Positions 8,090 through 17,961 of a stretch of 64,000 bases of DNA are shown in pieces (positions within the stretch are counted from its first letter, which is position 1; the number at the start of each line of letters is the position of its first letter). The translations under genes and the position numbers were made by a program. The DNA comes from a bacterium (GTDB lineage: Bacteria; Hinthialibacterota; Hinthialibacteria; Hinthialibacterales; Hinthialibacteraceae), in the NCBI GenBank assembly GCA_963662285.2, contig CAXXMV010000008.1, positions 896,001 through 960,000 of the forward strand, given 5' to 3'. Below the pieces are notes generated by a model. It was not told the DNA's origin and ran no database searches. It saw only the letters and a program-made list of their open reading frames with translations.

Positions 8090-9106
8090 CTAATAACTTT
8101 CCTCAGTAATCTCCGTTTTGCCTCTAAAGATATAGTAGATCACCGCCGTATAGGCGATCACCATCGGCATTCCAATCAGCGCGATGACCAGCATTACTTT
8201 TAAGGTCAGGGGCGTGGATGAGTGGGCGTAAACTGTCAGGCTATAATCCAGGTTGGTCAGGGATGGCACCATCCGGGGATAGAGACTTACTCCGGTCAGA
8301 CCCAGGGTTCCCGCTATCATCACCGATGATGCGAGAAACGCAATACCATAACGCGCCGCCTTAATTGTAACCGGCAAATAGGCGATGGCGCCCAGCATGG
8401 GTAGGAATACCACCCAGAAACTCCACTTGGACAAAATGCCGTCAAACAGAAACGGCGCCGCGAAGAAGGTCGATATAGTGGCCAATACATAGAGGATGAC
8501 CGAGGTCATCCATGCACCGTTAGCCCAACCCTGCATTCTGGATTGTAGATCGCCAACGGTTTTGATCGCCATATAGATAGCGCCATGCATGATGAAAAGC
8601 GATAGGGTTAAAAGCCCGATAAGGATGGCGTAGGGATTAAGCAAACCGAGAAAACTACCTGTGAAAGTATAGGTTTCATTCAAGGGGATTCCCCGCAGAA
8701 TATTGCCTAAGGCCACGCCAAGCAATAGGGCGGGCAGCAGGCTGCCAATCCCGAACATCCAGTCGAATAGACGTCTCCAAACCGGGCAATCTACCTTTCC
8801 GCGGAATTCCATTGACACAGCACGGAAAATCAGCGCGGCCAGAAGCAGCATCAGGGCTATGTAAAAGCTGCTGAAAACCGTGGCGTAAACCGGTGGAAAC
8901 GCGGCGAACAGCGCCCCGCCTCCGGTCAGCAGCCACACTTCGTTTCCATCCCACACCGGACCGATAGCATTGATGTGGATGCGTTGTTCATTATCATCCC
9001 GTGCGAAAAGGCTCAATGCTCCTACGCCCAGATCGAAGCCATCCAGGATGGCGTAGCCTGCGAACAGGACTCCTACTAACAAGAACCAGACTGTGTTTAA
9101 ATCCAT
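8090..9106 (-). CDS. cydB: Cytochrome bd ubiquinol oxidase subunit II
   Basis: LDGFDLGVG and IGPVWDGNEVWL motifs; coupled to cydA. Confidence 0.95.
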   Translation of the reverse strand: MDLNTVWFLLVGVLFAGYAILDGFDLGVGALSLFARDDNEQRIHINAIGPVWDGNEVWLLTGGGALFAAFPPVYATVFSSFYIALMLLLAALIFRAVSMEFRGKVDCPVWRRLFDWMFGIGSLLPALLLGVALGNILRGIPLNETYTFTGSFLGLLNPYAILIGLLTLSLFIMHGAIYMAIKTVGDLQSRMQGWANGAWMTSVILYVLATISTFFAAPFLFDGILSKWSFWVVFLPMLGAIAYLPVTIKAARYGIAFLASSVMIAGTLGLTGVSLYPRMVPSLTNLDYSLTVYAHSSTPLTLKVMLVIALIGMPMVIAYTAVIYYIFRGKTEITEESY

Positions 9107-10446
9107 CAGACCGTCACCTCCTCAACCGAATCCTTTACGGGACCTTCTTTAACTTCACGTATAAAGACAAAGAGATAAAGCGCTCCGAGGAAGAGGTAGA
9201 TTACGCCGAACAGCACGATGGAAAAGAGCACTTCTCCTGCTGATACCGTAGGTGAAAAGGCATCGGCTGTTCTGAGCAAGCGATATACCACCCACGGTTG
9301 ACGACCCACCTCAGCCACAATCCAGCCCAGTTGAGTAGCGATTAAAGGTAATGGAATAGCAGCGACCAGGATGGTAAGAAACCATCTGGTTTCCCACAAC
9401 ACGCCCCGGTAGAGTAGGAAAATCCCGAATGCCATCAAGCCGATAAACATGGTTCCCAGAGCCACCATATTATGGAAGGAGACGAAGGTTAAAAAGAAGG
9501 GAGGCCGTTCGTTTTCGGCGAAGGCGTCCAGACCTTTGACTTCGGCATTGATATCTCCATGCGCCATAATACTCAGCACGCCGGGAATTTCGATAGCGCC
9601 GATAAGCCGCGGCGGATTATCCAATGGAATAGCGAATCCCAGCAATGGGGCGCGGGTCTGGGTTTTGAGCAGTCCTTCCATAGTGGCGAATTTCTCCGGT
9701 TGGGTTTTGGCGACCTGGATGGCGTGTTCATGACCAGTGGGAAAGGCTGTCGCGACCGAAGCGATAAATCCGATGATCAAGGCCAGTTTCATTGAACGCC
9801 TGGTGACATCCATATCTTTTTTCTTAAGCGCCCAATAGGCCGATACGCCCGTTACCACGAAGGCGCCGCAGACAATTGTGGCGGCGAAAGTATGGAAAAA
9901 CCGCACCCAGGTTGAATCGTTAAATATGGCTTGAGTAAAGCTGGTCAGTTCAGCCCGGTTGTTCTGAATGATGTATCCCGCAGGAGTCTGCTGCCAGGAA
10001 TTGGCGGCGATGATCCAGAACGCGGATATAGTGGCGCCCACAGCAACCATCAAGATCGAAAACCAATGGATACCTTTGGAAACGCGCTTGCGTCCAAAAA
10101 GATACAGACCAAGAAAGGTTGATTCCATAAAAAACGCAAAGACGCTTTCCGCAGCCAAAGGCGCTCCGAAAATATCTCCCACGAACTTGGAATACTCTGA
10201 CCAGTTAGTTCCGAATTGGAACTCCATCACGATGCCGGTCGCCACGCCGACCACGAAGGTCAAGGCCAGCAATTTGGCAAAGGTGCGGCTCATCCGTTCA
10301 TAGACCGGGTTGCCGGTTTTCCAACTGGCGCCTTCCATCGCAACCAACAGCCAGGCCAGGCCGATGGAAATTGGTGGAAAAAGGAAGTGGAATCCTATGG
10401 TCAACGCGAATTGTAGTCTTGATAAAAATAAGGTGTCCATATCCAT
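9106..10446 (-). CDS. cydA: Cytochrome bd ubiquinol oxidase subunit I
   Basis: SRLQFA..FHFLF, EFQFGTNW, QPEKFATMEG and EVGRQPW motifs. Confidence 0.95.
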   Translation of the reverse strand: MDMDTLFLSRLQFALTIGFHFLFPPISIGLAWLLVAMEGASWKTGNPVYERMSRTFAKLLALTFVVGVATGIVMEFQFGTNWSEYSKFVGDIFGAPLAAESVFAFFMESTFLGLYLFGRKRVSKGIHWFSILMVAVGATISAFWIIAANSWQQTPAGYIIQNNRAELTSFTQAIFNDSTWVRFFHTFAATIVCGAFVVTGVSAYWALKKKDMDVTRRSMKLALIIGFIASVATAFPTGHEHAIQVAKTQPEKFATMEGLLKTQTRAPLLGFAIPLDNPPRLIGAIEIPGVLSIMAHGDINAEVKGLDAFAENERPPFFLTFVSFHNMVALGTMFIGLMAFGIFLLYRGVLWETRWFLTILVAAIPLPLIATQLGWIVAEVGRQPWVVYRLLRTADAFSPTVSAGEVLFSIVLFGVIYLFLGALYLFVFIREVKEGPVKDSVEEVTV

Positions 10447-10485
10447 GTTCTTATATTCTCCTTAATGGGATAAAAACCAATGGAT

Positions 10486-16010: not shown

Positions 16011-16044
16011 TATGTCTCATTAAAACATAACTTAATGAGACATA
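16011..16044. promoter_or_regulatory. Putative upstream activator site
   Basis: Perfect 13-bp inverted repeat TATGTCTCATTAA-N8-TTAATGAGACATA about 100-130 bp upstream of -24; related TGT-N8-ACA sites at 16146-16159 and 16164-16177. Confidence 0.6.
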
Positions 16045-16197
16045 CATGATCTAACCAATACAGAAACAAAGGATAATTACGCATCATAACTATATATATT
16101 ACAGGTAATTATAGATATAAATCGGATAATCTCATATCGTCATACTGTATAATAAGACATAAGTGTATCATGAGACATGTATAAGGAATATTAAAAA

Positions 16198-17961
16198 TCA
16201 GGATGGATTTTCTTGGAGAAAGCGGTAAAGCGTGGCTCTGGAGACGCCCAATTCACGCGCGGCGGCCTGTTTGTTGCCGGCAGTTTTAGTTAGCGCTTGT
16301 TCAACCGCCTCGCTGGAGAGTTTCCGTTTACGCTGCGCCGGTTCGGACTTATGGGTGGGAGAAAAGGCGTCGTGCGAAGAATGACGGGGAGGAAAATGCT
16401 CTGGATGGATTATATCGCCCTTGCATTTTAGCAAGGCGAACTGAATCCAATTTTGCAATTCCCGTATGTTTCCAGGCCAGTCGTAGGATCGCATAACGCG
16501 CAGGGCTTCATCGGATAAGGTGACGGTTTCGCGTTGATTTTCATCCAAAGCCCGCTTAAGAATATGTCTGGCGATAAGGGGAATATCATCGCGCCGTTCG
16601 CGTAACGGGGGAAGGTATATCGGAGCAACGCAAAGACGATAGTATAAATCCTCGCGAATTACTTTACGCAAATCCTTGTTGGTGGCGCTGATGACCCGCA
16701 CATCCACTTTAACGGTTTTCTCGCTTCCAACGCGCTCAAAGGTTCCCTCTTGAAGAACGCGCAGCAGTTTGACCTGCATTGTAGGGGAGATATCGCCGAT
16801 TTCGTCGAGGAAAATGGTTCCACCATCGGCCAGTTCAAAGCGGCCTTTCTTGTCGCGGATGGCGCCGGTGAAAGCGCCGCGAACGTGGCCGAATAGTTCA
16901 CTTTCGAGCAAACTTTCGGGGAGAGCGCCGCAATTGATAGGTACAAACAGCCGGTCGGCTCGGGAACCTTCACGGTGAATGGCAGCGGCGACCAGTTCTT
17001 TCCCGGCGCCGCTTTCGCCTTGGATGGATACGGAAGCGTTGGAATGGGCCAGGTCGCGGATGGTGTTGAATATCTCAAGCATTTTGGGATCGCGTCCGAT
17101 AATGCCGGAAAATTGCTCGGTCTGACCCAACTGCTTTTCCAGTTCCAACTCTCGCGTTCGGTCTTTTAAGGAGACCAAAATACCTGCGGGGCGGTTCGAG
17201 GCATCGCGCATCAACTTTAGATACATCCTGATTCGGCGAGTTTGGCCATTTTTAGCGCGGATTTTAACTGGCCGTTCTATTTCGTCGAAAATGTGAGTTA
17301 TGCCAGTATTACAAAAATCGCAACGATCCCCGCAGAATCCTCCGGTGAAGATATCGTGGCAGTCCTTACCGATTACTTCATCATGGGCGTAACCTGTGAT
17401 CCGTTCGGCGGCCTGATTGTAATAATAGATTTTGCGGTTGAAGTCGTGGGCGAGGATTCCGTCCGGCAGGTTGCTCAAGATCATTTCGGTCTGGTTTTTG
17501 GTATGAGCGAGCGCCGCCAGATAACCCCGGTCGAGCAAATCATCAACCAAATGCTTGATTTGATCCCGGACGCGTCGAAAGACATCCAGTACAGCTTCAG
17601 GTTCACCTTGCGTCGCAGCGGGATCTTCGAGATTCCAATCGACGCGGGGAGGATTGCCCGGAAAGACCGGACAGATTCCAGCGGCGTGATCGCAAAGCGT
17701 AATGAGCACATCGAAGTCCTGTTCGCCCAGAGAATCCAATGTCTTCGACTTTGCCTGTGAGATATCTATCCCGACTTCCGACATTACCTTAATAGCCAGG
17801 GGATGCACTGGTTTGATTTCGGTTCCGGCGCTCAAGGCGGTGACCCGTCCGTCATTCCGCGCCCGGACATAACCCTCTGCTATCTGGCTGCGGCAGGAGT
17901 TGCCAGTGCAGAGAAACAAGAGGCGGAAGGAGTTTGATTGCTCAATTGAATTATCAGTCAT
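16198..17961 (-). CDS. Sigma-54 enhancer-binding protein with N-terminal ArsC/LMW-PTP domain and Cys-rich PAS domain
   Basis: [33 protein letters not shown] with [36 protein letters not shown]; Fis-type [13 protein letters not shown]. Confidence 0.92.

Follow-up and report, generated by a model that had tools for sequence, protein, structure and literature searches.

PerR accounts for only part of how strict anaerobes sense oxygen and induce superoxide reductase, rubrerythrin and cytochrome bd, and a locus from a bacterium of the Hinthialibacteraceae raises the question of what else may control such genes. The locus lies in a 64,000-nucleotide window (positions 896,001 to 960,000 of contig CAXXMV010000008.1, assembly GCA_963662285.2) of a 7.3-Mb genome that is 92.5% complete (G000). 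It comprises a gene for a sigma-54 enhancer-binding activator of 587 residues with ArsC/LMWPc, cysteine-containing PAS, AAA+ and Fis-type helix-turn-helix (HTH) domains (16198–17961, minus strand) and, downstream of it, a cluster of oxygen-defence genes (8090–15865) headed by a gene for a 79-residue protein, here called the leader. The original prediction for this DNA held that the activator drives the defence operon through sigma-54, with the disulfide relay of its ArsC domain as the sensor. The link between activator and operon is upheld by linkage across genomes and by the sites that we identified, whereas the relay does not stand as a conserved core. Judged by sequence comparison, the activator very probably drives the cluster from a -24/-12 promoter, and the sigma-54 oxygen-defence circuit of which it would be part appears to be real, widespread and undescribed in the literature that we found.

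The 332-nucleotide gap 3' of the activator gene holds a -24/-12 element together with two clusters of TGT(C/A)TCA half-sites. The promoter (TGGCAC-AATTCA-TGC, 15899–15915, minus strand) was located with a sigma-54 scoring matrix made in this analysis from the consensus; its GG lies at 15913-15912 and its GC at 15901-15900, and transcription is predicted to start near 15888. About 140 nucleotides upstream of this start, the motif and its enrichment in relatives identify a proximal candidate enhancer, an inverted repeat at 16004–16051 whose 20-nucleotide arms are 90% complementary and whose core reads TGTCTCA-N16-TGAGACA (16013-16042). A distal candidate enhancer cluster of TGTCTCA/TGATACA-type half-sites was identified by motif scan at 16146–16178. 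The enhancer-like palindromes and -24/-12 promoter originally proposed downstream of the activator are therefore borne out. The AT-rich spacer also contains a weak IHF-like site (15932–15944, minus strand), with one mismatch to the consensus. The matrix scored 448 sigma-54-like sites in G000, among which only that of the window has at least two half-sites 40-330 nucleotides upstream; the promoter module at this locus is beyond chance. At the thresholds used, a wider regulon in G000 was rejected, there being no second sigma-54 promoter with at least two half-sites. The upstream region of the G000 catalase gene (C2, before 1318749) carries one half-site and AT-rich GATAA/TTATC repeats.

We surveyed 401 genomes from the phylum to which G063 belongs (Desulfobacterota), calling carriers of the family PAS domain at E < 1e-24, a threshold well separated from the next matches at 1e-17, with no more than eight candidates scored per genome. 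The leader gene was found in 33 genomes and the activator PAS subfamily in 32; the two co-occurred in 24, against 2.6 expected by chance, in a comparison where kin are not independent. A family activator adjoins the leader gene in 19 of the 36 leader loci, and one further locus shows a fusion of the N-terminal half to the leader protein. In 28 of these 36 loci the 7 kb that follow include, on the same strand, a defence gene (ahpC/prx, dfx, rbr, rub, ftn or cydAB). Because the half-site motif was derived from the window, the relatives serve as its test. Across 42 upstream regions (35 leader loci, six activator-selected loci and the window), 111 TGT(C/A)TCA half-sites were distributed over 34 regions, compared with a mean of 4.7 and a maximum of 12 in shuffled sequence, and sigma-54 sites were present in 31 (shuffles 1.3, maximum 4).

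The same association was seen from the side of the activator. We assembled 73 family loci (L011-L019 and L124-L188 without L158, which matched through a stand-alone ArsC; L019 and L145, both in the set, appear to be the same DNA). Of these, 23 contain the leader gene and 19 contain oxygen-defence genes, with many flanks incomplete; among the 40 loci that have at least 2 kb of downstream sequence, the numbers are 19 and 15, respectively. None of the 73 has acr3, arsA, arsM or arsR within 6 kb, again with many incomplete flanks, so the arrangement that was held to speak against the original prediction, homologs mostly beside ars genes rather than defence genes, did not materialise. As a control, none of 15 loci of more OrpR-like activators contained the leader gene or oxygen-defence genes. 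The conserved unit, as far as these loci indicate, is the activator, the promoter and the leader gene. Records that carry the labels Verrucomicrobiota, Lentisphaerota and Sumerlaeota, among others, contain relatives too, and the patchy spread of the leader gene suggests horizontal movement.

The activator protein matches LMWPc (residues 15-143), PAS (159-269), Sigma54_activat (287-448), the AAA lid (454-535) and HTH_8 (550-580) in Pfam, and its AF2 model has a mean pLDDT of 87. The AAA+ domain (16357–17103, minus strand, like the other domains) shows the Sigma54_activat architecture with Walker motifs and GAFTGA (residues 362-367), and is followed by the C-terminal HTH_8 DNA-binding domain (16222–16314). 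The PAS domain (17155–17487) contains C201-x-D203, C210, C214 and C217, which by analogy to OrpR are predicted to form a [4Fe-4S] site (as described in the accessible part of PMC8359166). The N-terminal domain (17533–17919) is of the thioredoxin type and aligns with B. subtilis ArsC (1jl3) at E 3e-28, with the CTGNSCRS sequence, the resolving C90 and C97 and the DP motif in register. It thus carries the CX5R loop, two resolving cysteines and DP motif of thioredoxin-type ArsC, and C18, R24, C90, C97 and D113 are all intact; its score of 134.9 bits is below the TIGR02691 cut-off of 174.3. Pfam and alignments agree with the domain order first proposed, including the retention of all ArsC catalytic cysteines in the window protein. 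Directly before REDLYYR, the AAA+ domain has a 5-residue deletion (residues 430-436, about 16650-16670 in the window) found in 5 of 66 scored members (P0001, P0002, P0003, P0006 and L099), the remaining 61 having the standard length.

This deletion would favour an account in which the activator is dead, or its adjacency to the cluster coincidental, and the genes are transcribed from sigma-70 promoters or by another activator. The deletion, however, is common to five homologs with 64-81% identity that retain GAFTGA and both arginines of the motif. G000 contains many other activators, and sigma-70-like matches are present at 16135-16108 and 16009-15982, but both sigma-70-like and terminator-like matches are at chance level (19 versus 16.4 and 14 versus 11.8). 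The long gaps inside the cluster, of 264 and 361 nucleotides, could also hint at separate transcription; these are accounted for by repeat insertions, since each holds one copy of a genome-wide repeat (13837–14022 and 12944–13122; 81% identical, 150-190 nucleotides, GC-rich hairpin, each gap giving ~300 BLAST hits across the genome), and the gene order of the cluster is largely retained in the relatives G010 and G016. We regard such a coincidence, or a dead activator, as most improbable.

The question then becomes which domain senses the signal. Our preferred reading, with a probability of roughly 0.68 for its parts jointly, is an OrpR-like PAS domain whose Fe-S cluster is the primary redox sensor, an HTH domain that binds the palindromes and an ArsC domain in an accessory role. 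The protein would belong to an unnamed clade of one-component sigma-54 activators that is related to, and distinct from, OrpR. Its HTH domain is expected to bind the TGT(C/A)TCA palindromes that lie 3' of the activator gene, and the activator would then open the -24/-12 promoter before the leader gene and in this way control the oxygen-defence cluster. The C-x8-C-x3-C motif of the PAS domain would hold a [4Fe-4S] cluster that reports the cellular redox state, and oxidation or loss of this cluster would turn the ATPase on. The ArsC-like domain may act in the window protein as a thioredoxin-reset thiol switch that tunes the response, in a circuit that could do without it.

Conservation within the family points to the PAS domain. 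The three cysteines of C-x8-C-x3-C (C201, C210 and C214) are invariant in all 68 aligned members, an aspartate or glutamate occupies position 203 in 55 and C217 is present in 48; these cysteines match C52, C61 and C65 of OrpR, and the acidic residue its D/E54 (PMC8359166, accessible part). In comparison, all five catalytic positions of ArsC are kept in 23 of 51 ArsC-bearing members, in an alignment biased towards ArsC, and in 4 of 24 members of a metagenome set selected by PAS. The domain is absent from 40 of the 73 activator loci, about half, one of these being cut. Because the ArsC set is decayed in many members and absent in about half of the loci, the relay is not required for the circuit, and ArsC-less members head operons of the same type with matching sites. 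A quick AAA+ tree places members with intact, decayed and absent ArsC intermixed in one clade (SH-aLRT 99), which fits an old fusion followed by repeated decay and loss of ArsC.

These observations bear on the sensor originally proposed, in which the ArsC relay (C18, C90 and C97) is the main peroxide or thiol sensor gating activation in the window protein. Beyond the catalytic residues in register with 1jl3, this proposal gains from the coupled fate of the cysteines: of the 28 members with C18, 24 have both resolving cysteines, compared with 1 of the 18 in which C18 has been lost. Since the ArsC cysteines are kept or lost together, the relay may still be used in the window protein. Intact copies are scattered over several branches, and the six fully intact loci (the window, L012, L125, L126, L127 and L129) include four beside defence genes, with none of the five relatives beside ars genes. 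In addition, several operons with an ArsC-less activator have, inside or next to them, an ArsC gene that is free-standing or fused to an FMN reductase (L079, L081, L084 and L087). Coupled retention, though, is also expected under simple time-dependent decay, and the relatives are not independent. With the set decayed in more than half of its carriers and dispensable at the head of equivalent operons, the relay cannot count as conserved in the circuit, and we consider it improbable as the main sensor. Three FMN-reductase/flavodoxin-ArsC fusion proteins (~324 residues) lie within defence operons (L081:7912-8883, L084:10060-11031 and L087:7012-7980), and that of L081 retains CX5R and two further cysteines.

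OrpR (DVU2106) of Desulfovibrio vulgaris Hildenborough is among the closest characterised systems, and it is active when reduced and off when oxidised (PMC8359166, accessible part). Like the window activator, OrpR is described there as a PAS-AAA+-HTH one-component sigma-54 activator with a target promoter beside its own gene, and with C-x8-C-x3-C and an aspartate or glutamate at Cys+2 in its PAS domain, corresponding to C201, D203, C210 and C214 here. An OrpR ortholog (L119), which stood for OrpR in our tree, has OrpR sites on both sides and adjoins Mrp, FeMo-co and MinD-ferredoxin genes; it shows 38% identity to the window activator over 429 residues. The window family nevertheless forms a separate clade (99/97 versus 100/100), with usually a fourth cysteine and a conserved leader gene, and the window activator has the extra ArsC domain. 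The OrpR binding site GGGCGYRTTTTGCGCCC has no match within 3 mismatches near the locus, the three 3-mismatch matches all being far away, and the targets are defence genes rather than orp genes. Clade, site and targets rule out that the window activator is OrpR itself, and its polarity is predicted to be, probably, the reverse. A member of the OrpR clade with the three PAS cysteines is encoded elsewhere in G000 (C1, about 414900-416250; L109:5859-7247), with no orp genes recognised among the scanned neighbours.

Polarity is the least certain step of the proposed mechanism. The switching on of the ATPase through oxidation or loss of the cluster is slightly favoured, and induction on oxidation fits the defence cargo. 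The alternative shares HTH binding and Fe-S sensing with the preferred reading and retains the polarity of OrpR, the holo [4Fe-4S] form being active; the defence cluster would then be on in reducing, iron-replete growth, as a standing defence and iron store, and off on cluster loss. Besides the precedent of OrpR, most of the products use or store iron (dfx, rbr, rub, ferritin and cydAB), no Fur was found in G000, and transcription of cyd and most rbr genes differed little between oxic and anoxic phases in sulfate reducers exposed to oxygen periodically (PMC11451228, accessible part). Shutting off a peroxiredoxin and a superoxide reductase upon oxidation would presumably be costly, however, and AhpC contains no iron. 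The fourth cysteine, common to most members and missing from the OrpR ortholog L119, would allow for a different behaviour. We therefore treat an OrpR-type polarity as possible but on balance unlikely.

Several observations weigh against the preferred reading, in which an Fe-S PAS domain that is turned on by oxidation controls the defence genes. The reported polarity of OrpR is one, and the AAA+ deletion is another; sigma-54 activation by the window protein stands as a prediction. Two family members have MEDS/PAS inputs without a C-x8-C-x3-C match and three have other cysteine spacings, which implies that the sensor is swappable. The link between family and defence genes is strong but not universal, as the 15 of 40 loci with sufficient downstream sequence illustrate; some members lead response-regulator/Fe-S clusters instead (L012, L017, L019 and L129), and for other family activators no target was recognised in the vicinity. 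The operon, promoter and half-sites recur in G016, and no adjoining family activator was found in this 82% complete genome, nor any by this query. Finally, a fur gene could be absent from the G000 assembly through its incompleteness, and G010 and G016 carry the leader gene and Fur-family genes together, so that replacement of Fur/PerR is not supported as a family-wide rule.

The members with swapped inputs (L064:8985-11405, L065:3275-6439, L075, L077 and L078) combine MEDS with several PAS domains, or have a Cys-rich domain with different spacing, yet retain the leader gene and, for the most part, the half-sites. In a second type of cargo (L012, L017, L019, L129 and L157), the leader gene precedes genes for response regulators, a CCG/Fe-S protein, a macro-domain protein or a multihaem cytochrome; L019 contains a pair of activator paralogs, a second leader gene and nifS/nifU/hemerythrin. 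Genes of the prismane/CO dehydrogenase family, and for glutaredoxin and ferredoxin-thioredoxin reductase, recur near the activator or in the operons (L148, L150, L153, L162, L171, L180, L077 and L080).

PerR is a Fur-family repressor acting at sigma-70 promoters, and PerR regulons of anaerobes include rbr, ahpC and related genes, the same class of targets as the window cluster. In G000, rpoN, catalase and thioredoxin reductase genes are present; the search of this 92.5% complete genome returned no match for FUR, OxyR, a haem-copper oxidase or Fe/Mn SOD. These results suggest that the organism is an anaerobe and that its main defence cluster is without the usual regulators, and in G000 the circuit may stand in for PerR/OxyR. 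Among 34 relatives, 32 have Fur-family genes, one to four each, and just two, G010 and G016, have the leader gene.

The ArsC fold might alternatively sense an oxyanion, arsenate or phosphate, and couple it to the defence genes, or simply be the arsenate reductase of the cell. The activator carries the only thioredoxin-type ArsC that we found in G000. The LMWPc/ArsC domain is also attached to PAS histidine kinases, many of them named PhoR, in 66 (within P0046-P0120) of the 120 proteins listed; this is another sensor-attached case of the fold, and one in which it is fused to phosphate sensors. An arsenate-related role is difficult to reconcile with the absence of ars genes from the family loci and with the P-loop arginine being kept in only 32 of 51 members. 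The sole trace of acr3 in G000 is an isolated 44-residue N-terminal stub (C2:1394301-1394432; L108) with no other ars genes recognised around it, and arsB, arsA and arsM were not found, in a search that was imperfect in that the ArsB control missed the E. coli protein. Oxyanion sensing or arsenate reduction by this domain is thus very unlikely. Compared with the thioredoxin-coupled ArsC enzymes (B. subtilis 1jl3; the S. aureus pI258 family, TIGR02691), the window protein shares the fold and all catalytic positions and differs in that the domain is fused N-terminally to an activator, falls under the family cut-off, lacks neighbouring ars genes and is decayed in most members.

The original prediction had placed such defence genes usually under PerR, OxyR or Fur, a statement that misses PexR of Myxococcus xanthus, a published sigma-54 activator of ahpC and katB (PMC12754779). 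According to the accessible part of that report, PexR lies beside its target and acts on ahpC through a -24/-12 promoter and palindromic enhancers; its host lacks OxyR/PerR, and PexR homologs are found near rbr or ccp as well. Similarly, the window promoter (15899-15915) lies beside the activator gene and ahpC is the second gene of the cluster. The input domains differ: PexR senses via a mononuclear Zn/Fe GAF domain (PMC12754779), whereas the window activator has ArsC and Cys-PAS domains and no GAF match in Pfam. The PexR site CACCG-n6-CGGTG (PMC12754779) is absent from the repeats in 15860-16200, where the motif is TGT(C/A)TCA, and the divergently transcribed arrangement of PexR, in an aerobe, contrasts with co-oriented window genes and an anaerobic set (dfx, rbr, rub and cydAB). 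The different site and the lack of a GAF domain rule out that the window activator is PexR. By analogy, the circuit appears to work like a combination of OrpR and PexR. These two surfaced in our literature search, which returned no description of the activator, the ArsC fusion or the leader gene and had most subscription papers outside its coverage; the accessible parts of PMC3543383 and PMC4641369 contain nothing on the circuit.

Every ingredient thus has a precedent in OrpR or PexR, and the circuit extends known kinds. It offers a concrete candidate for oxygen control in anaerobes, with a named promoter, an enhancer motif, sensor cysteines and a marker gene (33 of 401 Desulfobacterota genomes). 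The intact, decayed and absent states of ArsC on one activator form a natural series in which to ask how an enzyme becomes a sensor or a spacer. A broader and decidedly speculative proposal, which we think rather unlikely to hold in full, is a third general oxygen/peroxide system of anaerobes beside PerR and OxyR, in which an Fe-S PAS domain of opposite polarity to OrpR switches on the whole kit, a captured ArsC relay provides a thioredoxin-reset second input in the intact lineages and the leader is a dedicated feedback partner. If true, an enzyme would have become a thiol sensor in the lineages with intact ArsC.

The leader (15626–15865, minus strand, like all genes of the cluster) belongs to no Pfam or NCBIfam family, and its own, unnamed family comprises 769 clusters at 50% identity. 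The family alignment shows conserved Asp, Cys, Arg, Tyr, Glu and His residues, and the model is a helical hairpin (pLDDT 89). A Foldseek search against PDB gave no match at E <= 0.001, and the matches to chemoreceptor hairpins and encapsulated ferritin (E 0.4 or higher) were generic and not used. From its fixed position, the leader protein is plausibly a feedback partner of the activator. At L069:4789-5817 (G171), a decayed ArsC and a PAS domain are fused in frame to the leader protein, without AAA+ and directly before cydAB; this may be either a deletion scar or a hint of an interaction between activator and leader.

The remaining genes of the cluster encode an AhpC-type peroxiredoxin (15002–15589), a 147-residue probable ferritin/rubrerythrin-fold protein (14492–14935), desulfoferrodoxin, a superoxide reductase (14037–14417, above the TIGR00320 cut-off), rubrerythrin (13200–13772, above the NF045767 cut-off), rubredoxin (12677–12838), a ZIP/ZupT-family metal transporter (11767–12591), a DVU0298-family HEAT-repeat protein (11034–11744, above the NF045662 cut-off), non-haem ferritin (10486–11004) and cytochrome bd oxidase subunits I (cydA, 9106–10446) and II (cydB, 8090–9106). 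AhpC, rubredoxin, the transporter, ferritin and CydB were assigned by Pfam/NCBIfam and CydA by Pfam. All 11 genes are co-oriented as first described and ten of the names given to them were matched; the exception is the 147-residue "ferritin-like" gene, which has no Pfam or NCBIfam match and has Atlas look-alikes as its sole support. A single transcript across all 11 genes is likely. The two repeat copies, found by BLAST against the genome and presumably REP/MITE-like, are outside the circuit, and at the place of the second (12944–13122) the relative G016 has a flavodiiron gene. Plus-strand genes at 5394-7847 converge on the end of the cluster; they encode a TerC/Alx metal-homeostasis protein with a fused PGPGW domain, and a CPA2/MagA-like transporter.

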